Shown here piece by piece: positions 3,030-35,900 of a stretch of 64,000 nt of DNA. The notes below the pieces were generated by a model that saw only the letters and a list, made by a program, of their open reading frames with translations, was not told the origin of the DNA and searched no databases. This DNA comes from an uncultured bacterium (lineage in GTDB: Bacteria > Planctomycetota > SZUA-567 > JAKLDR01): positions 3,566-67,565 of the forward strand of contig CALGYR010000100.1 of NCBI GenBank assembly GCA_937935355.1, read 5' to 3'. The position numbers were made by a program, and so were the translations under genes. Position 1 is the stretch's first letter. Each line of letters opens with the position of its first letter.

Positions 3030-3240
3030 GCAGTGCCCGCCACTCGTCGGGTTTGCGGCTTTCGCTGGAAGCGTCGGGAACTGAGCCGGAATTCATCGCG
3101 CCCACCAGGAGAGAAGGAGCGACGTGCGGAACCGGACCGCCGCCGCAAGAGAACCACCCTGATCCTCAGGGAATCAAGGTGGTTCCAGAACAGGGCCTAC
3201 TCGCCCCTTTAGCGGAACTTTCGGCCCTGTTCCATATCTG

Positions 3241-4077
3241 TTAACCGGATGGCGGTGGCGGATTTTCCCGGAAACTCCGGAACGGATCTCCTGCGTCGTT
3301 CCCGGAGAACGACCGGCGCAGCTCGCCCGGAGGCATTCCGAACTCCCGGCGGAAGAGACGGGACAGCTGGTATTCGTCGCCGACGCCAACCTCGGGGGCG
3401 ATGGCCTTTAAGGGCAGGTCGGTGGTCAGGAGCAGGAGCTTGGCCTTCTCCAGGCGCAGGAGGCGGAGCTCACGCATGGGCGTGTGCCCGGCCGAGCGCC
3501 GGAAGGCGCGCAGGAAATGGTAGCGGTCCATGCCCGCCTCCCGGGCCAGGTCGTCGAGGGAGAGGCGCTCGCCGAGCCTCTCGCGCATCCAGGCGCGCAT
3601 CCTGGGGGCCAGGCCGTAGGCGTCGGTGCCGGCCTCGGAGGCGGCGCGGAGCGCCTCGGCCGCCGCGGACCGGAAGAGGTTCGCGGCCGACTCCCGCTGC
3701 GCCGCGGTCGTTGCCGGCCGCTCGGCGCACAGCCAGGAGATGAGCAGCGCCACGCGTCCGCGGACGTCGCGGAACTTCACGGGCAGAGCGCCGGCGAAAC
3801 CGGGATGTTCGAAGGCCATGAACCACGTCTCGACCGGACGGCGCCGGTCGCTGGTCTCTTCGTGGAGCGTGCCCGCCTGATATAGCAGCAGCTCCCCCGG
3901 CCCGGCGGTGATGGCCTGCCCGCGCATCCGGACCTGCATCCGGCCGCGGACCACCGCGATGACCTCGTGAAACGGGTGGGAGTGGGCCGCCATGGCCCAG
4001 CGCGGGTCGGGCCGGACGTGCCCGGCGGATATCAGGCGTTCGGCGGCAGGCTGCTGCATTCGCGCAATTCCTGACAA
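3241..4077 (-). CDS. AraC family transcriptional regulator with N-terminal cupin domain
   Basis: The C-terminus carries an AraC HTH: 'LSLDDLAREAGMDRYHFLRAFRR..GHTPMRELRLLRLEKAKLLL'. The N-terminus has a cupin-like His motif 'HSHPFHEV'. Confidence 0.8.
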   Translation of the reverse strand: MSGIARMQQPAAERLISAGHVRPDPRWAMAAHSHPFHEVIAVVRGRMQVRMRGQAITAGPGELLLYQAGTLHEETSDRRRPVETWFMAFEHPGFAGALPVKFRDVRGRVALLISWLCAERPATTAAQRESAANLFRSAAAEALRAASEAGTDAYGLAPRMRAWMRERLGERLSLDDLAREAGMDRYHFLRAFRRSAGHTPMRELRLLRLEKAKLLLLTTDLPLKAIAPEVGVGDEYQLSRLFRREFGMPPGELRRSFSGNDAGDPFRSFRENPPPPSG

Positions 4078-17077: not shown

Positions 17078-19303
17078 CTAGTGGCGCGGGCCGCCACGAC
17101 CGCCGTGGCCACCATGCCCGCCCCGGCCGCCGCCGCGACCGCCGTGGCCGCCGGGACCGCGCGGCCGGAAGCCGCCGCCGCCCTCGCCGCCGGCCGGCTG
17201 CTGGTTCTCCATGCCCTCGGGCACGGGGAGCAGAGCCTTGCGGGAGAGCTTGAGGCGCCCGGTGTCGTCGATGTTGATCAGCTTCACCTCGACGGTGTCG
17301 CCGATCTTGACGTGCTGGCCGATGTCCTTGACGTAGGCGTAGTCCCACTCGGAGACGTGCAGCAGGCCGTCGGTGCCGGGCAGGATCTCGATGAAGGCGC
17401 CGAACTCCTTGATGGTCCGGACGGTGCCCTTGTAGACCGTGCCGACGATCGGCTCCATGGTCAGGGCCTCGACCATGGCCTTGGCGGCCTCGGCCGCGGC
17501 CGCGTCCGTCGAGGAGATGGAGACGATGCCCTCGTCGTTGATGTCGATCTCGGCGCCGGACTGGGCCTCGATCCCGCGGATGGTCTTGCCGCCGGGGCCG
17601 ATGACCTTGCCGATCTTCTCCTGGTCGACCTTGATGGTGATGATCCGCGGGGCGAGCGGGTTGAGCTGCTCGCGCGGCTTGGCCAGGGCCTCGAGCATGA
17701 TCCCGAGGATCTTCATGCGCCCCTGGCGGGCCTGCTCGAGCGCGCGGCTCAGCAGGTCGGTCTTCAGCCCCTTCACCTTGATGTCCATCTGCAGGGCGGT
17801 GATGCCCTGGCCCGTGCCGGCGACCTTGAAGTCCATGTCGCCGAAGTGGTCCTCGTCGCCGAGGATGTCGGTGAGCACGATGCTCTTGTCGCCCTCCTGG
17901 ACCAGGCCCATGGCGATGCCCGCCACCGGGGCCTTGATCTGGACGCCGGCGTCCATCAGCGAGAGCGATCCGCCGCAGATGGTCGCCTGGCTGGACGAGC
18001 CGTTGGACTCGAGCACCTCCGCGGCGATGCGGATGGTGTAGGGGAAGTTCTCGCCGGAGGGCAGCACCGGCTCGAGCGCCCGCTTGGCCAGCGCGCCGTG
18101 GCCGATGTCGCGGCGGCTCGGGCCGCGCGGCATCTTGACCTCGCCGACCGAGAAGGACGGGAAGTTGTAGTGCAGCAGGAAGTCCTCCTCGAAGTCCTCG
18201 TGGAGGGCCTCGACCATCTGCTTGTCGCCGGGGGTTCCCAGCGTGGTGGTGGCCAGCACCTGGGTCTCGCCGCGGGTGAAGAGCGCCGAGCCGTGGGTGC
18301 GCGGCAGCAGCCCCACCTCGCAGGTGATCGGCCGGACGTCCTCGAAGCCGCGGCCGTCGCAGCGTACGCCGTTCTCGAAGATGCTCTTGCGCATGGCCAC
18401 GGACTGCAGTTCGTCGAAGGCCGCGTAGACCTTGCCCTTGGTCGGGCTCTTGGGGTCGTCGGGCTTGACGAACTCGGCCATGATCTTGTCGCGCACGGCC
18501 TTGAGCGCCGCGCGGCGCTCGGCCTTGGTCTTCACCAGGCAGGCCTGGCCGGTCTCGGCGAGGTATTTCGCCTCGACGGCCTTGAAGAGCGAGTTGTCGA
18601 CGGGCGCGGGCACCATCTTCTGGACGCCGCACTGGGCCGCGAGCTCGGACTGCATCAGGGCGATCTCGCGGCAGACGCCGCCGGCCATCTCGAGTGCCCG
18701 GACCATCACGTCCTCGGGCACCTCTTTGGCTCCGGCCTCGACCATGACGATGCTGTCGGCGGTGCCGGCCACGATGAGGTCCAGGTCGCCCTCGGTGCGC
18801 TGGGCGTAGCTGGGGTTGACGACGAACTCGCCGTTCACCCGGCCGATGCGCACGGCGCCGAACGGACCCTGGAAGGGCAGGGGGCTGACCGCCATGCTGG
18901 CGGAGCCCGCGATCATGGCGAAGATGTCCGGGTCGGTCTCGTCGTCGGCCGAGAGGGTCATGACCTGGACCAGCGTGTCGCGCCGGAAGCCGTCCGGGAA
19001 GAGCGGGCGGGTCGGGCGGTCGATGAGCCGCATGGTCAGGATTTCCTTCTCGGTCGGACGGCCCTCGCGCTTGTAGAAGCGTCCGCCGAAGATCTTGCCG
19101 GCCGAGAAGGCCTTCTCGCGGTAGTCGACCGTCAGCGGGAAGAAGTCGTCGAAGCCCTCGCGCGGGTCGGCGTCGGTGACGGCGGCGAGCACCACGGTGT
19201 TGCCCCAGGTCACCAGCGCGGCGCCGGAGGCCTGCTTGGCGAGGCGCCCGGTCTCGATGACCAGTTTGCGCCCGCCGATTTCACGTTCTACGATGAAAGC
19301 CAA
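17078..19303 (-). CDS. pnp: polyribonucleotide nucleotidyltransferase (PNPase)
   Basis: Two RNase PH domains plus KH and S1 domains. The N-terminus is 'MAFIVEREIGGRKLVIETGRLAKQASGA'. There is an unusual Gly/Arg/His-rich C-terminal tail. Confidence 0.92.
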   Translation of the reverse strand: MAFIVEREIGGRKLVIETGRLAKQASGAALVTWGNTVVLAAVTDADPREGFDDFFPLTVDYREKAFSAGKIFGGRFYKREGRPTEKEILTMRLIDRPTRPLFPDGFRRDTLVQVMTLSADDETDPDIFAMIAGSASMAVSPLPFQGPFGAVRIGRVNGEFVVNPSYAQRTEGDLDLIVAGTADSIVMVEAGAKEVPEDVMVRALEMAGGVCREIALMQSELAAQCGVQKMVPAPVDNSLFKAVEAKYLAETGQACLVKTKAERRAALKAVRDKIMAEFVKPDDPKSPTKGKVYAAFDELQSVAMRKSIFENGVRCDGRGFEDVRPITCEVGLLPRTHGSALFTRGETQVLATTTLGTPGDKQMVEALHEDFEEDFLLHYNFPSFSVGEVKMPRGPSRRDIGHGALAKRALEPVLPSGENFPYTIRIAAEVLESNGSSSQATICGGSLSLMDAGVQIKAPVAGIAMGLVQEGDKSIVLTDILGDEDHFGDMDFKVAGTGQGITALQMDIKVKGLKTDLLSRALEQARQGRMKILGIMLEALAKPREQLNPLAPRIITIKVDQEKIGKVIGPGGKTIRGIEAQSGAEIDINDEGIVSISSTDAAAAEAAKAMVEALTMEPIVGTVYKGTVRTIKEFGAFIEILPGTDGLLHVSEWDYAYVKDIGQHVKIGDTVEVKLINIDDTGRLKLSRKALLPVPEGMENQQPAGGEGGGGFRPRGPGGHGGRGGGRGGHGGHGGRGGPRH

Positions 19304-19356: not shown

Positions 19357-19626
19357 CTACTTGCGCAGGTTGAGGCGGTCGATGAGCCCCTTGTAGCGAT
19401 TGAAGTCCTCGCGGCGCAGATAGCGCAGCAGCCGGTTGCGCCGGCTGACCATCAGCACCAGCCCCCGGCGGGAGTGGGCGTCCTTCTTGTGCTTCTCCAG
19501 ATGCTTGGACAGGTCCGTGATCTGCTCGGTGAGGAGCGCGATCTGGACCTCGGGCGAGCCGGTGTCCTTCTCTCCGATGCGGTTGTCGGCGACGATCTGC
19601 TTCCTGCGTTCCTTGGTTACGGCCAT
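19357..19626 (-). CDS. rpsO: 30S ribosomal protein S15
   Basis: 89 aa, '[12 protein letters not shown]...[29 protein letters not shown]'. This is the classical rpsO-pnp arrangement. Confidence 0.92.
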
Positions 19627-20050
19627 GGTCTCCTCGACTCCTTCCTGCCCTTTCGCTTCTCGGGATCGGTCGGCCGCGCCCGCACGGGCGGACGCGGAGA
19701 ACGCGCCAGAACCCGGCCGGGAAAGGGACCAGCCGGATCCGGAGTGTCGCTCAGAGCGGCGCCGGAACGACCGGCGCGGTCGCAATGGAGTCAGTAGCTT
19801 CGGTGGAGAAGGGGGCGGCACGCCGGACGGCGGCGCCCGAAAACTTCGGCCTCGAACTCTACATCCTCGCCCGCGGCACGCGGGCCGACACTCTCATCTT
19901 TCATTCGGCCGCCAGTATAAGCGGGCCGTCCGGAGGCGTCAAGGACGGATTGGGGGCGCAATTCCCGGGATTTGCGTGGCGCGCGGGCATCGGGCGCGAG
20001 TAATATCCGGAGGGCGCCGGACGGCGGCGCACCGGCACCGGAGGGAGGCC

Positions 20051-23000
20051 ATGACCGACCGGGAGCTCCTCGACGCCTACGCGGCCGGAGGCTCGCAGAC
20101 AGCCTTCGCCGAACTGGTCGCGCGTCACGCCGGGCAGGTCTACGCGACCTGCCTGCGCGTCCTGGAGGACCCCCACGCCGCCGAGGACGCCGCCCAGGCG
20201 ACATTCCTGGTGCTCGCCCGCAAGGCCGGCGCCCTCGGCGGCGGGGCGGTCCTGGCCGGTTGGCTGCACCTGGCGGCCAGGCGCTCGGCCCTGGCGCTCA
20301 GGGAGCGGGAGCGCCGGCGCGAGCGGCGCGAGAGGGAGGCGGCGATAATGCGCGAACGCGAGTCGGCAGGGTCGGAGGCTTCCTGGGCGGAGGTCCGGCC
20401 CAGGCTCGATGCGGCGCTGGCCGCCCTGAGCGGGCCGCAGCGCGATGTGGTTCTGTTGCGCCATCTCTACGGCTGCTCCGAGGAGGAGGCTGCGAGGGAG
20501 CTGGGGTGGAAACGCAGCCGCGTGTCCATGACCCTGCTGCGGGCCATGGAGCGCCTGCGCGAGCGGCTGGGGCGCGACGGCGCGCGGCTTGGCTCGGCGG
20601 CCCTGGCCGGCCTGCTCGCGTCCGAGGCTGCGGGCCCGGCGGCCCCGGCCGGCCTGGCCGCATCCATCGTCGAGACCTGCTCCGGAGGGGCGGCGGCGTC
20701 ATCCCCGGTGGCATTCGCTGCGGAGGGAGTCATGAAGACCATGTTCCTGGCGAAACTGAAGGCGGCGGCGACGGTCCTGACGGCTGCGGCCGTGGCGGGA
20801 CTCGGCGGAACGGCGGCCGTGCTGCTCGCCGCCGAGGGGCCTGCCGGTCCGCCTGCCCCGGAGAGCCCCGCGCTTAAGGCCGCTCCGGCCAACACCTGGG
20901 TGAAGCTCGCCGAGGAGCCCGACGGCGCCCGGGACGGGGCGCTCTTCTGCTACGCGCCCAACGCCGGCCGCTTCATCCTGGCCGGCGGCGTGGCCGGCAA
21001 GCCCCAGCACTTCGACACCGAGCTCTTCGACGCCGGCGCCGGGAAGTGGGTCAACGCCCACCCCAAGGACGGCCCCTACAAGAACGAGTCGGGGCTGACC
21101 GACGCGCCCAGCTCCGGCTACACCGGCTGGCCGACGCCGGCCTTCCAGACCGACAAGGCCGGGGTCACCCGCATCCGCATGGACGGAGAGAACGCCGCCT
21201 ACGGCACGGACACGCGGCTGGGCTTCCAGTACGCCTTCGACCCGGCCGGCGGAAAGCTCTACGCCTACTTCTGCGACATCACCGCGGCCTACGACCCGCT
21301 CGAGCGCAAGTGGACCGACCTGAAGGCGGAGAAGTTCAGCAAGACGCCGCGCTTCGCGCTGATGTACGGCTCGCTGGCCTACGATCCGGTCAACAAGGAG
21401 GTCCTGTCGATCGGCGGCACCAGCAACGAGCCGGGCGGCACCCCCGGCACCTGGGCGTTCAACATCGCGGCCGGCTCCTGGAAGAAGGTGGAGACCGGCT
21501 CGAAGGAGCTCCGGGCATTGGGCGCCGGGGCCGAAGACTTGCGAAAGGGCGCCGACGCGCTGGCCAATGCCGCCCGCAACCGCTTCTACGTCGCCGAGAG
21601 CGAGGCCGAGGCCAAAGACGACCTGGCCGGCCGCGCCGCGAAGCTCGCCGCCGAGGCCGAGGCCTTCGTCGGGAAGCTGAAGGCGGCGAAGCTCTCCGGA
21701 GTCGAAGAGCGGGCGCCCGCGTCCGCCGCCGAGGAGTTCGGGAAGCTCGCCGCCGCGCTCAAGGCGCTTGGCGGCAGGCTCGGCGGCAAGGTCGGGCAGG
21801 AGGCGCTGGCCGAGGCTCAGTCCATCCAGGACCTGGCCTGGCGGGCGGCGCGCCGGCTCGACGCCGAGCCCTGCGGCCGGGGCTATTCCCAGATGGCCTC
21901 GGACCTGGCCGCGGGGAAGATAGTGCTCTTCGGGGGCAGCCGGCTCGACGGCTTCCTCTCCGACACCTGGGTCTACGACTGCAAGTCGCGATCCTGGGAG
22001 CAGCGCCGGCCGAAGCTTGCGCCCTCGCCGCGCGCCGGGCACACGCTGGCCTGGCTGCCGGGGAGCGGCAAAGTCGTCCTGGCCGGCGGCAGCGCCCGGC
22101 ACGGCGCCGCGCCCCAGGACCTCTGGGCCTACGACCTCAGGGGCGACGAGTGGAGGCTGCTCGCCCGGTTCAAGGACGGCCCGGCCGGTGGACCCGGCGC
22201 GGTCGACACCTCCGACCAGCTGATCGTGGTGAGCGTCGACCCGAAGAAGGGGCGCTCGCGGGTGACCTGGGGCATGCGCGTGGATCCGGCCGCGCCGGCC
22301 GCCGGACTGGACGCGGCCTCGGCGGGAGGCGCTCCGGGGACCGTGGCCTTCGGGCTCGCTCCGGCCGACTACGACAAGGCCGCGACGCCCGATCCGGACG
22401 GGGTCGGCAGGGTCCTCAAAGAGCTGCCGGCCAACAAGTGGAAACTCATGCCCAAGCCGCCGAAGGGCACGGCCACCCGCGACTGGGGGACGCTGCCCTA
22501 CGATACCGACCGCCACCAGATCCTTCACTGGGGCGGGGGGCACTCGACCTACATCGGCACGGACCTGGCCCACTACAGCCTGCGCACCGCCACCTGGAGC
22601 ATCGGCTATCCGGCCGAGAACCCGCCGACCCGCGGCTTCTACGCCATGGCCGACCAGAGCTTCAACGACCGCCCGATGGTGCCCAACCACGTCTGGGATG
22701 CGGCGGCCTACGACCCGGTCTCGAAGAAGGGCGTGTGGATGGTCCGGGGCGGCACCTGGACCTACGATCCGGCCAGGCGCGAGTGGGACTACCCGCCGGC
22801 GGCGAGCATCGGAGGTGAGCTCAAAGTCGCGCTGGCCGCCACGCCCAAGGGCGTGGTCTGCTGGGCCAACGAGGCCCTGCAGCTCTTCGACGCCAAGGCC
22901 GGGGCGTGGAGCAAGCTGCCGCTGGCCGGCGGCAAGGTCGGCGGCGCCTACGGGGACACGTCGGGCATCTGCCACGACTCGAAGCGCAACTGCCTGTGGC

Positions 23001-23410
23001 TCGCCCACCGCGGCGGGCCGATGATGCGCTACGACATGGATGGCGGCGCGCTCACCGTCATCGACGTCAAGGGCCCGGCCGGGATCTTCATGCGCGAGAC
23101 GGTCTACGTCCCGGAGATCGACATGCTCTTGAACGAGGTCCGGGTGCAGGGCGAGGGCGGGGCCGGCAACCTGGCCTTCGACATCGAGGGCGGGAAGTGG
23201 CTGGGGCTCGATCTGCCCTACGATGGCAAGGATCAGTACCTGTCGAGCCGCGAGTACTGGGCCACCACCGGCAGTCGGTCGCTGCACTACGACCCGGCCC
23301 TAAAGGTGGCCATCTTCCTCTACGGCGCCGAGGAGGTCGGCGTCCTTCGTGCCGAGAAGCCGGGCTTGAAGACCTTCGAGGTCAAGCTCCAGGAGCCGAA
23401 GAAGAAGTAG
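20051..23410 (+). CDS. ECF (sigma-70 family) sigma factor domain fused in frame to a TM segment and a large Kelch/beta-propeller domain
   Basis: Sigma region 2 ('FAELVARHAGQVYATCLRVL') and region 4 ('DVVLLRHLYGCSEEEAARELGWKRSRVSMTL') are present. They are followed by a hydrophobic segment and repeated Kelch-like units. There is no stop between the parts. A strong internal SD 'ggagggag' precedes the ATG at 20732. Confidence 0.7.
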   Translation: MTDRELLDAYAAGGSQTAFAELVARHAGQVYATCLRVLEDPHAAEDAAQATFLVLARKAGALGGGAVLAGWLHLAARRSALALRERERRRERREREAAIMRERESAGSEASWAEVRPRLDAALAALSGPQRDVVLLRHLYGCSEEEAARELGWKRSRVSMTLLRAMERLRERLGRDGARLGSAALAGLLASEAAGPAAPAGLAASIVETCSGGAAASSPVAFAAEGVMKTMFLAKLKAAATVLTAAAVAGLGGTAAVLLAAEGPAGPPAPESPALKAAPANTWVKLAEEPDGARDGALFCYAPNAGRFILAGGVAGKPQHFDTELFDAGAGKWVNAHPKDGPYKNESGLTDAPSSGYTGWPTPAFQTDKAGVTRIRMDGENAAYGTDTRLGFQYAFDPAGGKLYAYFCDITAAYDPLERKWTDLKAEKFSKTPRFALMYGSLAYDPVNKEVLSIGGTSNEPGGTPGTWAFNIAAGSWKKVETGSKELRALGAGAEDLRKGADALANAARNRFYVAESEAEAKDDLAGRAAKLAAEAEAFVGKLKAAKLSGVEERAPASAAEEFGKLAAALKALGGRLGGKVGQEALAEAQSIQDLAWRAARRLDAEPCGRGYSQMASDLAAGKIVLFGGSRLDGFLSDTWVYDCKSRSWEQRRPKLAPSPRAGHTLAWLPGSGKVVLAGGSARHGAAPQDLWAYDLRGDEWRLLARFKDGPAGGPGAVDTSDQLIVVSVDPKKGRSRVTWGMRVDPAAPAAGLDAASAGGAPGTVAFGLAPADYDKAATPDPDGVGRVLKELPANKWKLMPKPPKGTATRDWGTLPYDTDRHQILHWGGGHSTYIGTDLAHYSLRTATWSIGYPAENPPTRGFYAMADQSFNDRPMVPNHVWDAAAYDPVSKKGVWMVRGGTWTYDPARREWDYPPAASIGGELKVALAATPKGVVCWANEALQLFDAKAGAWSKLPLAGGKVGGAYGDTSGICHDSKRNCLWLAHRGGPMMRYDMDGGALTVIDVKGPAGIFMRETVYVPEIDMLLNEVRVQGEGGAGNLAFDIEGGKWLGLDLPYDGKDQYLSSREYWATTGSRSLHYDPALKVAIFLYGAEEVGVLRAEKPGLKTFEVKLQEPKKK

Positions 23411-28540: not shown

Positions 28541-28631
28541 CCGGGTTGACACCACAAGGAGGAGAGGGCCGGTCCGGAGGCCGTCCCTGCGATCATCCTG
28601 GACAGAGGTGCACCGGTGAGGAGGAGCTGAA

Positions 28632-29054
28632 ATGTTCAGCCTGCAGTTGAGGTCTCTGGGAGTGATGGCGTTGGGCTTGGCCTTCTCGTTTGCGGCCGTC
28701 GCCGCCGAGGGAGACAAGCCTCAGGCGGGCGACCAGGACGGGGCGAAGAAGGAGGTCAAGGTCCAGACCACCTGTCCGGTCATGGGCAACAAGATCAACA
28801 AGGACATCTACGTCGATCACGACGGCAAACGGGTCTACCTGTGCTGCAAGGCCTGCGTGGCCGCCTTCAACAAGGACCCCGGGAAGTACATCAAGAAGCT
28901 CGAGGACGAGGGCGTGACCATCGAGAAGGCCCCGGTGCAGACGGAGTGCAAGGACAAGTGCGATGCCAAGGACGGCAAGGCCGGAGGCGGCTGTTGCTCG
29001 GACGCCGGCAAGACCGTCAAGGAAGGAGCGGGGGAAGGCGGGTGCTGCAAGTAG
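28632..29054 (+). CDS. secreted YHS/TRASH-domain metal-binding protein with Cys-rich C-terminus
   Basis: Signal peptide, YHS-like 'CPVMGNKI.....YVDHDGKRVYLCCKACVAAFNKDPGKY', and a C-terminal 'GGGCCS...GGCCK' motif. Confidence 0.7.
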   Translation: MFSLQLRSLGVMALGLAFSFAAVAAEGDKPQAGDQDGAKKEVKVQTTCPVMGNKINKDIYVDHDGKRVYLCCKACVAAFNKDPGKYIKKLEDEGVTIEKAPVQTECKDKCDAKDGKAGGGCCSDAGKTVKEGAGEGGCCK

Positions 29055-29156
29055 CGCCCGCGCGGTTCTACGGGCGGTTCTCCCCGCAGAGAACCGCCCG
29101 TAGAACTTCCGCCGCAGAAGGCGTCATGAACCCCGGTCCGGGTACGGAGGCTGAAT

Positions 29157-29441
29157 ATGCTTGACGACGACCTCTCACGCGAGCTCGACCGCCGGCTCCT
29201 CAAGATCGAGGGCCAGGTCCGCGGCATTCGCAAGATGATCGAAGATCATCGCTACTGCGTGGACCTGCTCGACCAGCTGGCCGCGGCGCGCGCGGGCTTG
29301 GGCGCGGTCGGCCAGGGGATACTCAGGAACCACATCGAGACCTGCGTGGCCGCGGCCCTGTCCGGGACTAACCAGGCCGACCGGCAGGCGAAGGTCGAGG
29401 AACTGGTCAGGCTCTTCCCGCGGTTCTGCCGCGGAGGCTGA
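29157..29441 (+). CDS. csoR: CsoR/RcnR family metal-sensing transcriptional repressor
   Basis: 94 aa, 'LKIEGQVRGIRKMIEDHRYCVDLLDQL...H..C'. This is the CsoR fold with a Cys-His-Cys ligand set. Confidence 0.8.
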   Translation: MLDDDLSRELDRRLLKIEGQVRGIRKMIEDHRYCVDLLDQLAAARAGLGAVGQGILRNHIETCVAAALSGTNQADRQAKVEELVRLFPRFCRGG

Positions 29442-29483
29442 GGAGGATTCCAATGCGCCGAGGGCACTGCGACCGGAGGGGAA

Positions 29484-29640
29484 CTGCGGCACCGAACGTT
29501 CAACATGCAACACGCAACATTCGACACGCAATGAATCAGCGGAAGGGGCCGATTCATCGGTTTCATTCCTCAAGATCGTGCTCCTTCCCTGATTTGCTCT
29601 GTATGTTGCATGTTGCATGTTGGACGTTGCGTGTTCGTCT
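29484..29640. repeat. family B-like hairpin (CAACATGCAAC arms) with an inner stem-loop
   Basis: 'gaacgttcaacatgcaacacgcaacattcgacacgcaatgaatc...gattcat...tgttgcatgttgcatgttggacgttgcgtgttcg'. Confidence 0.7.
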
Positions 29641-29671
29641 CTTCCCCGAAATATCCTGCAGGGCCATCGCT

Positions 29672-31096
29672 GTGCGCACTTCGAGGACTGGTCTCGCTCT
29701 GCTCGCGCTTCCCCTGGCCCTGGCGGCTGGCTGCGCGCCTGACGGTTCGCCGGGCGCTTCGCCAGGCGTTGGGATCGGCGGTTCGGCGGGGACCCCGCCC
29801 TTCAGCAGGGCCGGGATCGTTCGCGACCGGGGGATGGGGGGCGAGGTTCGCGCCGAGCCGCCCCTCGCGACGCTCGACGACTATCTGGCGTATGCGGCGA
29901 TCCACAACCCCGGCCTGGAGGCGGCCTACTACCGCTGGCAGGCGGCGACCGAGCGCGCCCCGCAGGCCCGGAGCCTTCCCAATCCGGTGCTCAATTACGG
30001 GTACTACATCCGCTCGGTCGAAACCAAGGTCGGCCCGCAGCGCGAGCGAGTGGGCCTGTCCCAGGCCATTCCATGGCCGGGCAAGCTCATCGCCGCCTCG
30101 GCGGTGGCGGACAGAGAGGCCGAGGCCGCGCGGCTCGGCTACGAGGCGGCCAAGTTCGAGCTCTTCTATCGGGTCAAGGACGCCTGGTACGAGTACTACT
30201 ACCTCGGGCGTCAGACCCAGGTGACGGAGGCCGTCGCCGACCTGGTCCGGAAGATGGAGGAGGTCGTCAGGGCCAGGTACGCGGCCGGCGCTGCCGGGCA
30301 TCCGGACCTGATCCGCGCGCAGGTTGAGCTCGGACGGGTCGAGGACCGCGTCAGGAGCCTGCGCGACCTGCGCTCCGCGGCGGCCGCCAGGCTCAACGCC
30401 GTGCTCGGCCGTCCGACGGACGCGCCGGTGCCCTGGCCCGGGGAGGCGCCGGCCGTCTCCAGCCTCGCGGCATCGGACGAGTCGCTGGTCGCCGAAGTCC
30501 TGGAGCGCAACCCGGAACTCGCCGCGCTCGGCGCCCAGGTCGAGCGGGACCGCAGGGCGGTGAGCCTCGCCAGGCAGAACTACTGGCCGGACATCACCGT
30601 CGGCGGCGAGTACATCTTCACCGACAAGGCCAGGAGCACCATGCCGATCGAGGACAACGGCAAGGACCCGGTGGTGGTGAGCGTGGGTCTGAGCCTGCCC
30701 ATCTGGTTCGGGCGCTACCGGGCGGCCGAGCGCGAGGCCCGCGACCGGCTGCGCGGCACGGAGCTCTCGCGCGAGGACCGGGGCAACGCGATCGCCGCCC
30801 GGCTCAAGCGCGTCCTCTTCGAACTGCACGACGCCGAGCGCAAGGCCGAACTCTACGGCCGGACGCTCATACCCCGGGCCGAGGATTCCCTGGCGGCGAA
30901 TGAGGCGGCCTTCAAGGCCGGCCGCACGGACTTCTCGGCCCTGCTCGACGCCGAGCGGGTGCTGCTCGACTTCCGGCTGAGCTACGAGCGGGCGGTGGCC
31001 GGCCACGCCCAGCGCCTCGGCGAGCTCGAGATGCTGCTGGGCCGGCCGGTGGCCACGGATGCGGTGTCCGACGCTCCCAAGGAGGTGGGCCGATGA
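29672..31096 (+). CDS. cusC: TolC-family outer membrane efflux protein (CusC-like)
   Basis: Lipoprotein-like 'LALLALPLALAAGC' followed by two OEP repeats. A GTG start at 29672 is chosen because the upstream part of the ORF is occupied by a hairpin repeat. Confidence 0.75.
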   Translation: MRTSRTGLALLALPLALAAGCAPDGSPGASPGVGIGGSAGTPPFSRAGIVRDRGMGGEVRAEPPLATLDDYLAYAAIHNPGLEAAYYRWQAATERAPQARSLPNPVLNYGYYIRSVETKVGPQRERVGLSQAIPWPGKLIAASAVADREAEAARLGYEAAKFELFYRVKDAWYEYYYLGRQTQVTEAVADLVRKMEEVVRARYAAGAAGHPDLIRAQVELGRVEDRVRSLRDLRSAAAARLNAVLGRPTDAPVPWPGEAPAVSSLAASDESLVAEVLERNPELAALGAQVERDRRAVSLARQNYWPDITVGGEYIFTDKARSTMPIEDNGKDPVVVSVGLSLPIWFGRYRAAEREARDRLRGTELSREDRGNAIAARLKRVLFELHDAERKAELYGRTLIPRAEDSLAANEAAFKAGRTDFSALLDAERVLLDFRLSYERAVAGHAQRLGELEMLLGRPVATDAVSDAPKEVGR

Positions 31097-32949
31097 TCGA
31101 CTTCAGAAGAATTCTGGTGAGCGGCCGGTTCCGCCTGGCATTCGCCATCGCCGGGGTGCTGCTTCTCGGCGGCCTGGCGACGATCGTTCTGCACGAGTCC
31201 GGCGGCAGCCATGCGGCCGAATCGTCCGTGGCCGGCAAGGCCGGGGCGCAGTACTACACCTGCGGCATGCACCCCTGGGTGATTCTGCCGAAGCCCGGCG
31301 ACTGCCCGATCTGCCACATGAAGCTCGTGCCCCTCGATCCCGCGAAGTTCACCGGCCAGATCGCCATCGACCCGGTGGTCGTCCAGAACATCGGCGTCCG
31401 AGTCGCGCCGGCGACGGTCGGAGAGGTGACCCGCACCGTCCGGACGGTCGGTTCGGTCGAATACGACGAGACCCGCGTCCGGGACGTGAACCTCAAGATC
31501 GCCGGCTGGATCGAGAAGCTGCACGTCGACTCCCTCGGTCAGCCGGTGAAGAAGGGCGAGCCGCTCCTCGAGATCTACTCGCCCGAGCTCTACTCGGCCG
31601 AGGCCGAGTATCTCGCGGCCTTTCGGCGCGCCAAGGCCGGGCAGAACGCGGACAGGGCCGACAGGATGGACGCCGAGTTGCTCGCGGCCGCCCGGAAGCG
31701 CCTGGAGTACTTCGACGTCCCGGCCGGCGAGGTCCGCGAGCTCGAGCGGACCGGCGAGGTCAGGAAGGCCCTGACCATCCGCAGCCCCTTCGACGGCGTG
31801 GTCGTCGAGAAGATGGCCCAGGAGGGCATGAAGGCCGATGCCGCCATGCGCCTCTACCGCATCGCCGACCTCTCGACCGTCTGGGTGCAGGCCGCGGTCT
31901 ACGAGCAGCAACTGCCCTACGTCCGGGAGGGCCAGGCGGCGGCCATGACGCTGCCCTACCTGCCCGGCCGGAAGTTCGACGGCAAGGTGGCCTACGTCTA
32001 CCCCTACCTGGACAGGAAGCTCCGCCAGGTGAACGTGCGCCTGGAGTTCGCGAACCCCGATCTCACGCTCAAGCCCGGGATGTTCGCGAGCGTCGAGTTG
32101 CGCGGCGCCGAGGCGAAGCAGGGCCTGCTCGTCCCGCGCGAGGCGGTGATCGACACCGGCGAGCGGCAGGTGGCCTTCGTGAGCCTGGGCAAGGGGAGGT
32201 TCGAGCCCCGCGACGTGAAGCTCGGCGTCGAGGCCGACGGCGGCAAGGTCGAGATCCTCGAGGGCCTGAAGCCCGGCGAGATGGTGGTCACCAGCGGCCA
32301 GTTCCTGCTCGACAGCGAGTCGCGCCTGCGCGAGGCGCTGGCCAGGATGATGGCGGGGACGACGGGAGGGGTGGAAGGTGGAGGGTGGAAGGTGGAAGGT
32401 TCCGCCTCGCAAGCCTCCACCATCCACCATCCACCTTCCACCCTGCTTGTCCTTCCGGCGCCCGCCGGCAAGGCGCTCGCCGGGATGCTCGACGGCTACT
32501 TTGCGATCGGTGCGAAGCTGGCCGACGACACCGCTGCGGGCATCGCCGAGCCCGCGCGACAAGTGGCCTCGAGCGCCGAGGCTCTGCTCAAGGTGGAGAT
32601 CCCCGGCGACCCGCACTTCTGGCACAAGCACATGGAGGCCGGCGAGGTCCGCGCCAGGGCGCTGGAGCTGGCCGGCGCCGGCGATCTGGCCAAGGCCCGC
32701 TCGGTCTTCGCCGACCTGGGCACGGCGCTCGAAAAGCTGCTCAAGGCGACGGGCGTCCCCGCTGGCTACGGGAAGGAGGTCTACGAACTCCATTGCCCGA
32801 TGTATCGGGAGGAGCAGGGCGGCGCCGTCTGGCTGCAGACCAACCAGGATGTCACCAACCCATACTACGGCAAGGCCATGCTGAACTGCGGGGACGTGGT
32901 GGGGGCTGTCCCCTCCCACGCCGCTCCGGACGGGAACGGGAAGAAGTAG
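31093..32949 (+). CDS. cusB: efflux RND periplasmic adaptor (CusB-like) with N-terminal heavy-metal-binding motif and C-terminal DUF3347-like domain
   Basis: 'YYTCGMHPWVILPKPGDCPICHMKL' (HMBD), then an MFP barrel/lipoyl region and a C-terminal 'YYGKAMLNCG'. A GGTGGAAGG hairpin repeat sits in frame in the linker at 32368-32444. Confidence 0.75.
   Translation: MIDFRRILVSGRFRLAFAIAGVLLLGGLATIVLHESGGSHAAESSVAGKAGAQYYTCGMHPWVILPKPGDCPICHMKLVPLDPAKFTGQIAIDPVVVQNIGVRVAPATVGEVTRTVRTVGSVEYDETRVRDVNLKIAGWIEKLHVDSLGQPVKKGEPLLEIYSPELYSAEAEYLAAFRRAKAGQNADRADRMDAELLAAARKRLEYFDVPAGEVRELERTGEVRKALTIRSPFDGVVVEKMAQEGMKADAAMRLYRIADLSTVWVQAAVYEQQLPYVREGQAAAMTLPYLPGRKFDGKVAYVYPYLDRKLRQVNVRLEFANPDLTLKPGMFASVELRGAEAKQGLLVPREAVIDTGERQVAFVSLGKGRFEPRDVKLGVEADGGKVEILEGLKPGEMVVTSGQFLLDSESRLREALARMMAGTTGGVEGGGWKVEGSASQASTIHHPPSTLLVLPAPAGKALAGMLDGYFAIGAKLADDTAAGIAEPARQVASSAEALLKVEIPGDPHFWHKHMEAGEVRARALELAGAGDLAKARSVFADLGTALEKLLKATGVPAGYGKEVYELHCPMYREEQGGAVWLQTNQDVTNPYYGKAMLNCGDVVGAVPSHAAPDGNGKK
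32368..32444. repeat. family A hairpin (GGTGGAAGG arms) inside the cusB linker
   Basis: 'ggtggaaggtggagggtggaaggtggaagg-N17-ccaccatccaccatccaccttccacc'. Confidence 0.75.
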
Positions 32950-32953
32950 TCCC

Positions 32954-35900
32954 ATGATCGGCAAGCTCATCGACTGGTGCGTCCGCAACCGCCTTCTGGT
33001 GCTGCTCCTGACGGCGCTGTTGGCCGTCGGAGGCATCTGGTCGGCCAGCCACATCACCATCGATGCCATCCCGGACCTCTCCGACGTGCAGGTGGTGATC
33101 CGTACGGAGGCGGCGGGCCAGGCCCCGCAGATCGTCGAGGACCAGATCACCTATCCGCTGACCACGGCGATGCTGGCCGTGCCCAAGGCCAAGGTGGTGC
33201 GCGGCTACAGCATGTTCGGCACCAGCTTCGTCTACATCATCTTCGAGGACGGCACCGACCTGTACTGGGCGCGGAGCCGCGTCCTCGAGCAGCTCAGCAC
33301 CGTTTCGGCGAAGCTCCCGGCCGGCGTGAGCCCGCAACTCGGGCCGGACGCCACCGGGGTGGGATGGATCTACGAGTACGCGCTCGTCACCGGCAGGTAC
33401 TGTCCGGACCATCCGAACGGCGCCTGGCACGACCCCGTGACGGACAAGTGGTACGCCGATCCCGGGAAAGCCCCCGGCGACGAGGCTGTGCAGAAACGGC
33501 TCGTCCATCACCGGGTCTTCCAGGAGAGCCGCGATGCCTGCCCTCTCGACGGCAAGCCTCTCAAACCGAGCGACCAGAGCCTGGCCAACCTCCGCAGCCT
33601 CCAGGACTGGTATCTGCGCTACGAGCTGACCGCGGTCGACGGGGTCAGCGAGGTGGCCTCGCTCGGCGGCTTCGTCAAGCAATACCAGGTGGTGGTCGAC
33701 CCGGTGAAGCTGCTGGCCTTCCACATGCCGCTCGGCAAGGTCAAGTCCGCGATCCAGCGCTCGAACCTCGACGTTGGCGGCCGGCTCGTGGAGATGAGCG
33801 AGACCGAATACATGGTTCGGGGCGTGGGCTACCTCGGCAGCCTCTCTGACCGGGAGGTCGTCGTCGCCCGCGCCGCAGGCAAGTCCGTCGGGGAGCTGCG
33901 CACCGCCAGGGCGCTCGATGAGCTGGGCAGGGTCGCGCTCGGCGCCACGGAGAGCGGATCTCCCATCCGGCTCTCGGACGTGGCCGAGGTGCGCCTCGGC
34001 CCGGACATCCGCCGCGGCGTGGCCGACTGGAACGGCGGGGGCGAGACCGTCGGCGGGATCGTGGTGATGCGCTTCGGCGAGAACGCCCGCGCGACCATCG
34101 ACAACGTCCGCCGGAAGCTCGCCGACCTCGAGAAGGGCCTGCCCGCCGGCGTGGCGGTCGAGACCGGCTATGACCGCAGCGACCTGATCGACCGCGCGGT
34201 GGATACGCTGCGGCACACGCTCTTCGAGGAAATCGCCATCGTCGCGCTGGTGTGCATTCTGTTCCTGCTCCATGCCCGGAGCGCGCTGGTGGCCGCCTTC
34301 GTGCTGCCGACGGGAGTGCTGGCCACGCTTGCGGTCATGCACCTGCTGGGCATCAATGCCAACATCATGAGCCTGGGCGGCATCGCCATCGCCATCGGCG
34401 TGATGGTGGACAGCTCCATCATCATGGTGGAGAACGCCCACAAGCACCTCGACTACGAGAGACAACGCGTGGCCGAAGGGGGCGGGCCCCGCCCGCGGTC
34501 CGCGGTCATAGCCGAGGCGGCCCGGGAGGTGGGCCCGAGCCTCTTCATCGCGCTGCTCATCATCGTGGTCAGCTTCCTGCCCATCTTCGTGCTGGGCGAG
34601 CAGTCCGGGAGGCTCTTCAAGCCCCTGGCCTACACCAAGACCTTCGCGATGATCGGCGGCGCGGTGCTGGCCGTGACCATCATCCCGGTGCTCATGACCT
34701 TCTTCGTGTCGGAGCGGACGCTGCCCGTGGAAATGAGCCGGCGCAGGCGCTGGGCCACCTACGCGGGCATCGTCTTCGTCCCCGCCCTGGTGTTGGCGGC
34801 GATCCCCTTGCCGCAGCTGGACGGATACCGGCTCCCGCTGGCTCTGGGCTGGGCCGTCCTCTCCGCCCTGGCGATCCTGCCGCAGCGGCTCCCCTCGGAG
34901 GAGCGGAACCCGATCAGCCGCTTCCTGGAGGCGGTCTACAACCCGCTATTCGCGCTGGTGATGCGCTTCCGCTGGGCGGCGATGATCGGGGCGGTCGTGC
35001 TGGTGGCCGTGACATGGGTCCCCTTCAGCCGTCTGGGCAGCGAGTTCATGCCGCCGCTCGAAGAGGGCGACCTGCTCTATATGCCCACGACCGACCCGGG
35101 CATCAGCATGGGCAAGGCCCGCGAGCTGCTCCAGCAGACCGACGCGCTCATCAAGAGCTTCCCGGAGGTCGAGAAGGTCCTGGGCAAGGCCGGCCGGGCC
35201 GAGACCGCCACCGACCCGGCGCCGCCGAGCATGCTCGAGACCACCATCACCCTCCGGCGCGACAAGGACCTCTGGCGACAGGTGCCGGCCGGGCGCTTCT
35301 TCGCCTCCTGGCCGGGGTTCCTGCGCGGGCCGCTCTCGCACATCTGGCCGCTCAACCGGCCGATCACGACCGACGAACTGGTCTACGGCTACGAGCTGCC
35401 GGTGGCCGGCCGCGAGCCGCTCCACGTCCCCGGGCTCAACGAGGCGGTCCAGATCCCGGGGCTGACCAACTCCTGGACCATGCCGATCAAGACGCGCATC
35501 GACATGCTCTCCACCGGCATCAAGACCCCGGTGGGCGTCAAGGTCATGGGGCCGGACCTGGGGACGCTGGGCCGGATGGCCGACCGGATCGCCCAGGTGC
35601 TGAAGACCTCCGAGGGCACCGGCGCCTACACGGTGAGCGCCTTCCCGGAGAAGACCGTCGGCGGCAATTACCTCGACGTGCGCATCGACCGCGACGAGAT
35701 CGGCCGCTACGGCCTGACCGTGGGCGACGTCCAGGACGTGGTCATGAGCGCCCTGGGCGGCGCCAACGTCACCTACACGGTGGAGGGGCTGGAGCGCTAT
35801 CCGGTGAACCTGCGTTATCCCTCCGAGTTGCGCGACCGACGGGACGCGCTCGCCGGCATGCTGGTGGCCACGCCCTCCGGCGCGCAGGTGCCGCTGGGGC

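Follow-up and report, generated by a model that had tools for sequence, protein, structure and literature searches.

Planctomycetes are rich in extracytoplasmic function (ECF) sigma factors that carry membrane-spanning extensions, yet the reviews consulted report no experimentally studied member. One described group is ECF57 (formerly ECF01-Gob), planctomycete sigma factors whose long C-terminal extensions abound in WD40-like repeats and which reach about 5.3 copies per planctomycete genome (reviews). Two conserved cysteines in ECF57, one in sigma region 2 (sigma2) and one in region 4 (sigma4), are reported to link the two regions (PMC8999054). The only sigma factor fused to a transmembrane (TM) helix and a periplasmic part whose mechanism has been shown experimentally is IutY of Pseudomonas putida (ECF243), a sigma/anti-sigma hybrid from which the sigma factor is released by sequential Prc and RseP cleavage. 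Actinobacterial fusions of groups ECF48, ECF52 and ECF53 are predicted to work like IutY, and in SCO4117 a Pro-rich region is followed by an extracellular carbohydrate-binding domain. Here we describe a gene at positions 20051-23410 of a 64,000-nucleotide stretch of planctomycete DNA (contig CALGYR010000100.1; the whole stretch is called the window) that joins an ECF sigma factor, a TM helix and a Kelch-type double propeller. Sequence comparison shows that the product is a true one-component ECF sigma factor tethered to the membrane, of a kind already known from planctomycetes. Taken as a whole, the locus is probably best explained by a tethered sigma factor that would be released by proteolysis, combined with a plausible internal translation start that would make a sigma-less propeller.

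A sigma factor and a Kelch ectodomain in one reading frame

The gene is a single open reading frame (ORF) running from ATG 20051 to TGA 23410 (1119 codons). Its orthologs begin at a matching MTD(R/G)ELL, and an identical protein, P0001, is called as one gene in a metagenome-assembled genome at NCBI (GCA_036768975.1, contig DAIPLX010000026.1). The original prediction, made from the DNA letters, had read sigma regions 2 and 4, a hydrophobic helix and a Kelch propeller of about 850 residues in one stop-free frame. Our ORF, Pfam and hydropathy analyses confirm this layout: the C-terminal extension beyond the ECF core spans 944 residues with one TM helix, and the part after the helix 858. All Pfam sigma and Kelch matches exceed their gathering scores, and the general ECF model of NCBIfam, TIGR02937, scores 73.6 (cut-off 42.9). 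A Pfam search of the protein gave no match to sigma region 3, leaving regions 2 and 4 only; with neither region 3 nor region 1.1, and with a fold that agrees with ECF sigma factors, the N-terminal part is an ECF (group 4) sigma factor. The features are listed below in window coordinates, on the + strand unless stated, with domain limits in residues of the 1119-residue protein; AlphaFold2 is abbreviated AF2.

20040-20048, +: Shine-Dalgarno (SD) sequence of the main start, GGAGGGAGG, read in the sequence
20051-23410, +: whole ORF, 1119 residues plus stop; sigma, linker, TM helix and double propeller
20114-20317, +: sigma-70 region 2, residues 22-89; Pfam PF04542 (Sigma70_r2), 29.7 bits against a cut-off of 24; AF2 helices 16-98
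20402-20563, +: sigma-70 region 4, residues 118-171; Pfam PF08281 (Sigma70_r4_2, residues 118-169) and PF04545; AF2 helices 112-175
20576-20761, +: conserved cytoplasmic linker, residues 176-237; two short helices and the start of the long membrane-entering helix
20722-20729, +: internal SD-like element GGAGGGAG; last base of the A224 codon, the E225 and G226 codons, first base of the V227 codon
20732-20734, +: in-frame ATG, M228; candidate internal start 5 nucleotides past the GGAGG core, not family-conserved
20741-20743, +: in-frame ATG, M231; candidate internal start, family-conserved
20762-20830, +: single TM helix, about residues 238-260; hydropathy maximum of 1.99 at residues 242-260; AF2 continuous helix 218-260
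20831-20887, +: Pro/Ala-rich periplasmic spacer, residues 261-279, from the translation
20888-23407, +: periplasmic ectodomain, residues 280-1119; two beta-propeller-like domains with Kelch repeats; AF2 model, Foldseek, about 60 homologs
21503-21853, +: helical bundle within the first propeller, residues 485-601; AF2 helices 224-252, 264-284, 294-313 and 322-340 in ectodomain numbering
21830-22180, +: top-scoring Kelch repeats, residues 594-710; PF24681 (80.1 bits against 50), PF13418, PF01344, PF07646

Residues 238-260 are the only strongly hydrophobic stretch of the protein and are flanked on the cytoplasmic side by K229, K235 and K237. This helix is oriented N-in/C-out, which leaves the sigma2-sigma4 core (residues 1-175) in the cytoplasm. 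The mature part of secreted homologs starts at LKxAPxNTWVK, directly after the position of the spacer. Long antisense ORFs over the gene (for example 20699-23287, minus strand, 862 residues) were rejected as artefacts of GC-rich DNA.

We found fused full-length orthologs at 73% identity (P0002, from a 'Planctomycetota bacterium') and 59% identity (P0004), along with the more distant fused homologs P0011-14, P0121 and P0163. The alignment of fused orthologs runs unbroken through the sigma4-TM linker, whose protein sequence is conserved. The sigma-linker-TM module is common to more than 100 proteins at 35-50% identity, and at least 568 relatives occur in species-representative genomes, mostly those of Gemmataceae, Isosphaeraceae (including Singulisphaera), Fimbriiglobus and unclassified Planctomycetota. 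The C-terminal parts of these relatives include WD40, CarboxypepD_reg, PQQ, LamG/PA14, beta-helix, HEAT, thioredoxin/AhpC, PDZ with S41 peptidase, and GH123; WD40 is found in many of them. All of them have a TM helix near residues 250-270, preceded by the motif aLA(E/K/Q)G-v-l-(R/K)-x-M-x-x-x-K-l-K. Linker and juxtamembrane motif are kept irrespective of the ectodomain (113 fused relatives), with R175, R176, G177, P199, L202, L223, G226, M231, K235 and K237 conserved family-wide.

Among 86 family ORFs from 80 fetched loci, 85 have a linker free of stop codons. In the one exception, at locus L033, the frame stops in the sigma4-TM linker after MLTIKTIKAK; sequencing error, decay to a pseudogene and a natural split variant are all possible explanations. 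No sigma gene lies upstream of the unfused propeller homologs P0005, P0006 and P0003 (three loci); a paralogous Kelch gene, a PATR protein gene and a divergent aldolase gene are found there. These comparisons argue that the fusion is a real single gene, at most anciently fused. Of the two explanations first offered for the uninterrupted frame, a one-component tethered sigma factor is upheld by the unbroken alignment of fused orthologs, which keep the frame with no stop or frameshift dividing two genes; a sigma/anti-sigma pair that had lost its stop codon finds no support as a recent event or an error, given the single linker stop and the lack of split loci among those searched.

A further sigma fusion lies after ortholog P0002 on contig DAOOTB010000075.1 (locus L004, 9643-13080). 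This 1145-residue protein combines Sigma70_r2 and Sigma70_r4 with GH123 N-terminal and catalytic domains, so that a glycoside hydrolase takes the place of the 'ectodomain'. Upstream in the same locus are an AraC regulator, a GH2 gene and three URO-D-like genes.

The ectodomain and proposed control of the tethered sigma domain

About 60 proteins match the ectodomain (residues 262-1119) over its full length, at 35-81% identity; with few exceptions they stand alone, are 850-915 residues long and carry classical N-terminal signal peptides, and most are planctomycete. Asp, Trp and Arg residues are among the invariant positions of the ectodomain. An exhaustive search of 50%-identity representatives with the ectodomain returned 790 matches below 1e-30. 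Just five of the ectodomain homologs are fused to a sigma factor, and another, P0154, to a Ser/Thr kinase. Sigma-fused genes are scattered over the neighbour-joining tree of ectodomains, each next to unfused sisters, so that the sigma module must have been gained or lost on several occasions.

We modelled residues 262-1119 with AF2 from a 59-sequence alignment and obtained a confident structure (mean predicted local distance difference test, pLDDT, 92.7; predicted template-modelling score, pTM, 0.92). The model shows two beta-propeller-like domains, the first of which is interrupted by a four-helix insertion. In Foldseek searches, the matches were to single Kelch propellers, including the Kelch domains of KEAP1 and NS1-BP (target-normalised template-modelling score, TM-score, 0.7-0.77), and more weakly to double-propeller proteins such as GH74 xyloglucanases and the periplasmic sensor BT4663 (TM-scores 0.21-0.30). 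With profiles above threshold and a propeller fold, the ectodomain is a Kelch-repeat propeller, and the Kelch double propeller is a new ectodomain type for sigma-TM fusions: what the locus adds to these is a widespread 850-residue secreted double propeller.

The kinase fusion P0154 (1395 residues) consists of a kinase and the full 850-residue ectodomain, and a Ser/Thr protein kinase with Kelch repeats (L005:1714-3789) lies directly upstream of the sigma-Kelch ortholog P0004. The existence of both kinase-fused and sigma-fused copies shows one periplasmic module wired to two signalling outputs. Because the propeller is otherwise free and is also fused to a kinase, the sigma-linker-TM module in turn is a portable cassette that has been grafted onto periplasmic proteins. 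In locus L001, tandem paralogs of the double-propeller gene occupy positions 3-662 and 728-3418, and the upstream gene ends with a C-terminal propeller of the same family, 65 nucleotides before the sigma-less P0005. A full-length secreted homolog at 51% identity (P0126/P0127) is present in the gammaproteobacterium Thioalkalivibrio denitrificans; this copy, outside an otherwise planctomycete distribution, may reflect horizontal transfer.

On the cytoplasmic side, an AF2 model of residues 1-285 (70-sequence alignment; pLDDT 86.9, pTM 0.79) shows the sigma2 and sigma4 helical bundles, linker helices at 182-193 and 202-211, and a long helix (218-260) that spans the juxtamembrane motif and continues through the membrane. 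The linker helices have pLDDT values of 84-95. We compared the modelled sigma core with known ECF structures and found root-mean-square deviations of 9-10 A to anti-sigma-bound forms (SigW/RsiW, sigmaE/RseA, CnrH/CnrY and SigK/RskA), while agreement with holoenzyme-bound forms was poorer (22-29 A). The model fits a conserved linker that would hold the sigma domain compact and inactive. Pfam (E<=1) found no FecR, zf-HC2 or RskA anti-sigma domain between sigma4 and the TM helix, where the linker measures about 60 residues; the linker itself is a candidate in-cis regulatory, anti-sigma-like segment.

By analogy with IutY, in a sequence of events that we infer at every step, the sigma factor is probably released by regulated proteolysis. 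The tethered sigma domain, probably clamped by its own linker, would be kept off free RNA polymerase. A periplasmic event at the propeller, either ligand binding (possibly of a glycan) or damage, would act as the trigger. The sigma domain would then be freed by cleavage at site 1 and, within the membrane, at site 2, following the pattern of IutY and of classical anti-sigma factors.

An alternative is that the sigma factor acts while tethered, recruiting RNA polymerase to the membrane as ToxR and CadC do, or that the linker transmits a switch without any cleavage. A protease gene linked to the locus was not found among the listed window genes (about 10050-33410) or in the ortholog loci, the linker is both short and conserved, and a review files ECF57 under 'protein interaction' and not under proteolysis, all as action in place would have it. 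The experimentally studied precedent IutY, however, requires cleavage by both Prc and RseP, and a 400-kDa polymerase engaged on DNA with its sigma factor some 60 residues from the membrane would probably be sterically demanding; we therefore regard action without release as unlikely. Several observations also weigh against control by tethering and proteolysis as we have drawn it. As evidence for in-cis inhibition, the compact sigma conformation of an AF2 model is weak; no identifiable protease, regulon or partner lies in the window; and the gene neighbourhoods of orthologs are not conserved and revealed no common regulon.

Candidate translation signals at the sigma-TM junction

A conserved nucleotide-level signature resembling a translation initiation region sits at the graft point. 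The original prediction had described a strong SD sequence 4 nucleotides before ATG 20732. The sequence is there, at a different distance: GGAGGGAG ends 2 nucleotides before this ATG, and its GGAGG core 5 nucleotides before it. As for its strength, the bare octamer is at chance level in the window (6 copies against 6.7 expected at 70% GC), and significance comes only from comparison across the family. GGAGG-N3-9-ATG occurs 30 times in the window (19.7 +/- 4.4 expected). A 5-mer SD word would be expected here 32% of the time from the amino acids and codon usage of this gene; among the 18 internal ATGs of the gene that are in frame, 3 have such a word upstream. The linker between sigma2 and sigma4 contains a further SD-like word with an in-frame ATG (20335-20350, GGAGGCGGCGATAATG, M100), and matches of this type indicate that chance SD words are common at this GC content. 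Since motif counts in the window could not settle the matter, we turned to a codon test on the family, for which the DNA of 85 genes (80 genome loci plus orthologs) was aligned on protein.

Our comparison of these genes indicates that the SD-like element and the ATG that follows it are under nucleotide-level selection across the family. The codons at residues 225-227 are overwhelmingly GAA-GGA-GTN, which spells AAGGAG. GGA accounts for 53 of the 61 Gly codons at position 226 but for only 16% of Gly codons gene-wide (binomial P=2e-33); this is the most biased synonymous choice among 285 N-terminal columns, the runner-up reaching 2e-9. Glu225 is encoded by GAA in 29 of 33 Glu codons (gene-wide share 43%), and residue 225 alternates among E, Q and K, which are chemically unlike, with NAA codons in 46 of 84 genes. 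In 51-56% of the genes, codons 228-231 have a 5-mer SD word in front of them; the background frequency along these genes is 6%. Amino-acid sequence and the codon usage of each gene together predict 13.7 genes with such a word, and 46 have one.

The start codon is conserved as well. ATG231 is present in 72 of the 85 genes, 11 nucleotides after AAGGAG, and the spacer between them is built from rare A- or T-rich codons (TTG, AAA, CGA, AGA). The 40 nucleotides centred on ATG231 have a GC content of 0.49, compared with 0.65-0.70 nearby, and a predicted folding energy of -5.6 kcal/mol, compared with -12 to -14 nearby; the region is less structured than the gene average in 99% of the 72 genes. In the window gene, local GC falls to 0.53 around the internal SD and ATG (whole gene 0.72). 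At likely true starts in the same loci, the spacing from GGAG to ATG ranges from 5 to 12 nucleotides with a mode of 8, so that 11 nucleotides is usable though long.

Among Kelch-type fused orthologs, all six whose DNA was read carry an SD word at the homologous spot. P0002 and P0163 now encode T-K-G there, and their DNA still reads AAAGGAG (P about 0.005-0.009 for P0002 under its own codon usage); P0121 also retains AAAGGAG, but has ATT at position 231. The sigma-less relatives P0005 and P0006 start at the homologous point, and in P0005 the start is preceded by GGGAGGGAG, with an unrelated gene upstream. These starts suggest that the element can serve as the only start of a gene. What the family holds is an SD-like element at a functional spacing from a conserved in-frame start, beyond what protein constraint explains, and the earlier suggestion that both forms might be expressed gains strong comparative support to this extent.

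Ribosomes starting at M228 or M231 would make, from the same mRNA, a sigma-less propeller that is signal-anchored or secreted. The protein begun at M231 reads M-F-L-A-K-L-K followed by the hydrophobic helix, which corresponds to the n- and h-regions of a signal anchor or signal peptide; in general terms, the short form would carry M-x-x-x-K-x-K and a hydrophobic helix as a signal-anchor or signal-peptide-like N-terminus. It would equal the TM-plus-ectodomain protein that is found elsewhere as a free secreted protein. We put the chance that this is a functional internal initiation region, from which each gene yields a tethered sigma factor and a sigma-less TM-plus-ectodomain isoform, at about even or slightly below. 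A family-wide two-protein design is a tentative proposal, to which we give a little less than an even chance: the sigma-less form would be a working extracytoplasmic protein, decoy or partner, and the long form a stoichiometric reporter copy whose proteolysis would feed the state of the pool to transcription. In the searchable literature, we came across no account of ECF fusions with an internal start.

Several points count against internal initiation. The spacing of 11 nucleotides is long and is seen at only 6 of 77 likely true starts, and about 40% of family genes have no 5-mer SD word. Covariation between SD word and ATG (P=0.014 over all genes) disappears when only well-aligned members are kept, and we did not use it. 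The K/M/F-rich amino-acid motif accounts for some of the GC trough. ATG228, which is better spaced, lacks family-wide conservation, its column being Met in only 12 of 113 proteins.

The same element might instead slow elongating ribosomes through anti-SD pairing and yield no second product. Such a delay would come once the sigma core and linker are out of the ribosome but ahead of TM-helix synthesis, and might, for example, allow the sigma domain to fold or to dock on its linker. Nucleotide-level conservation inside an ORF that is almost never interrupted would suit a pause, as would a spacing to ATG231 beyond the mode at likely true starts and the loss of ATG231 in about 15% of members, including P0121 with its retained AAAGGAG. 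A pause leaves unexplained the conserved ATG (72 of 85), the A/T-rich and weakly folded 40 nucleotides with their rare TTG, AAA, CGA and AGA codons, and the sigma-less relatives that start translation at this very spot. SD-induced pausing is itself disputed in the ribosome-profiling literature. We consider a pause without a second product improbable.

Much less probable still is that the internal SD is a functionless by-product of a conserved Ala-Glu-Gly motif in a GC-rich gene. The window on its own would be compatible with this, given the chance frequency of the octamer and the one-in-three expectation for a 5-mer SD word, and E-G is a recurrent family motif. The family data contradict it: the rare codons (GGA, GAA) and the 46 SD words lie far beyond expectation, P0002 keeps AAAGGAG despite its change to T-K-G, and the E/Q/K alternation at residue 225 fits an NAA constraint and not side-chain chemistry.

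The idea of an assembly or sequencing artefact, or of a recent stop loss that joined a sigma gene to an anti-sigma gene, has nothing in its favour beyond the internal SD and ATG and the origin of the DNA in a metagenome-assembled genome, and is barely credible: recent stop loss, frameshift artefact and chimeric assembly are set aside by fused orthologs that keep the frame at 73%, 59% and lower identity, by uninterrupted linkers in 85 of 86 family ORFs, and by unfused loci in which a split pair of sigma and TM-Kelch genes was not found (three loci).

Programmed frameshifting was also rejected as a role for the element: the SD does lie 3 nucleotides ahead of codon 228, and codons 228/229 commonly meet in an NTG-A junction that yields TGA in the +1 frame, but the site has neither a slippery or re-pairing codon nor a dnaX-like heptamer. 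Tandem arrays of sigma-TM-ectodomain genes within 8 kb occur in L054 (three genes) and in L030, L037 and L076 (two each), and every copy has its own AAGGAG/GGGAG-ATG element.

If the internal start is functional, every such gene encodes a regulator together with its own sigma-less counterpart, and annotation changes from one coding sequence with one product to one with two. If the two-protein feedback design also holds, it would add a new principle of regulation to ECF sigma factors that carry extensions.

Genomic surroundings and relation to known systems

The neighbours of the gene in the window are housekeeping genes (rpsO-pnp, rubrerythrin, PilZ and epimerase). Sugar-type regulators and GH2, GH123 and beta-helix genes recur near orthologs and are absent from the window; a glycan ligand for the propeller is a reasonable, if speculative, guess. 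A copper/metal cluster lies downstream, at about 28630-33400, and contains genes for a YHS-domain protein, a CsoR-type repressor, an outer-membrane factor, a CusB-like adaptor and a CusA-like RND pump.

The only sigma-70-type promoter of its kind in the region (TTGACG-17-TATACT, 10 of 12 matches) lies on the minus strand at 19914-19942 and is directed away from the sigma gene, towards rpsO (19357-19626) and pnp (17078-19303). An annotated 72-residue ORF across this promoter region (19785-20003) is probably spurious. We identified a GGRAYTTG motif 60-90 nucleotides upstream of the start in the window (19967-19974), L004 and L005 (GGGATTTG, GGAATTTG, GGAACTTG), each copy being followed about 22-26 nucleotides later by an A/T-rich hexamer. 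GGRAYTTG occurs in the window at chance frequency (6 against 5.8 expected), and the upstream pattern rests on three sequences; the motif is a possible autoregulatory ECF-type -35 element, a role that we do not claim for it.

Conserved in-frame internal starts that give two isoforms are known from CheA-L/S, IF2 alpha/beta and ClpB 93/79. The junction described here resembles them in having an SD at a workable distance from a conserved in-frame ATG within an unstructured, A/T-rich patch. It differs in that the predicted short form would change compartment and lose the whole transcription-factor module, for which we know of no precedent among sigma factors. In the ectodomain, the tandem propellers resemble those of GH74 enzymes and of BT4663, a Bacteroides hybrid two-component sensor (Foldseek E-value about 1e-10), and BT4663 likewise attaches extracytoplasmic propellers to a TM signalling module. 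At 8-10% identity and TM-scores of 0.21-0.30, this is an architectural resemblance and not membership of one family.

IutY offers the best functional analogy, with sigma domain, TM helix and periplasmic domain in one polypeptide. IutY has an anti-sigma/periplasmic domain of the FecR type and works with a TonB-dependent outer-membrane receptor, whereas the window protein has no FecR domain in Pfam and no receptor gene nearby, and its ectodomain is about 17 times longer than the 50-residue stub that RseP accepts in IutY. The actinobacterial ECF48, ECF52 and ECF53 proteins also fuse a sigma factor to TM helices and an extracytoplasmic part. They differ in carrying a zinc-finger (ZAS) anti-sigma domain before the membrane, where the window protein has no zf-HC2 or RskA match, and in belonging to another sigma clade.

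The closest resemblance is to ECF57, in which an ECF core and a long propeller extension likewise form one polypeptide, in planctomycetes and in multiple copies per genome. The window protein has the long extension and the planctomycete origin, its nearest homologs come from Planctomycetota or Gemmataceae, and its sigma-linker-TM part shows 35-49% identity to sigma-TM-WD40 proteins from Gemmataceae and Isosphaeraceae (Singulisphaera among them). C34, in sigma2, is present and at least 90% conserved. Two features speak against placing the protein in ECF57 itself. The WD40 repeats reported for that group have no Pfam match in the window protein, which matches Kelch families only, and the sigma4 cysteine is absent: the majority consensus there is VLCYLEG, Kelch-type orthologs have R or H at the cysteine, and the window protein has R137. 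We class the window protein, on its sequence, as ECF57-like and not as a proven ECF57 member, set apart by a propeller that is Kelch-type, double over some 840 residues and otherwise a free secreted protein.

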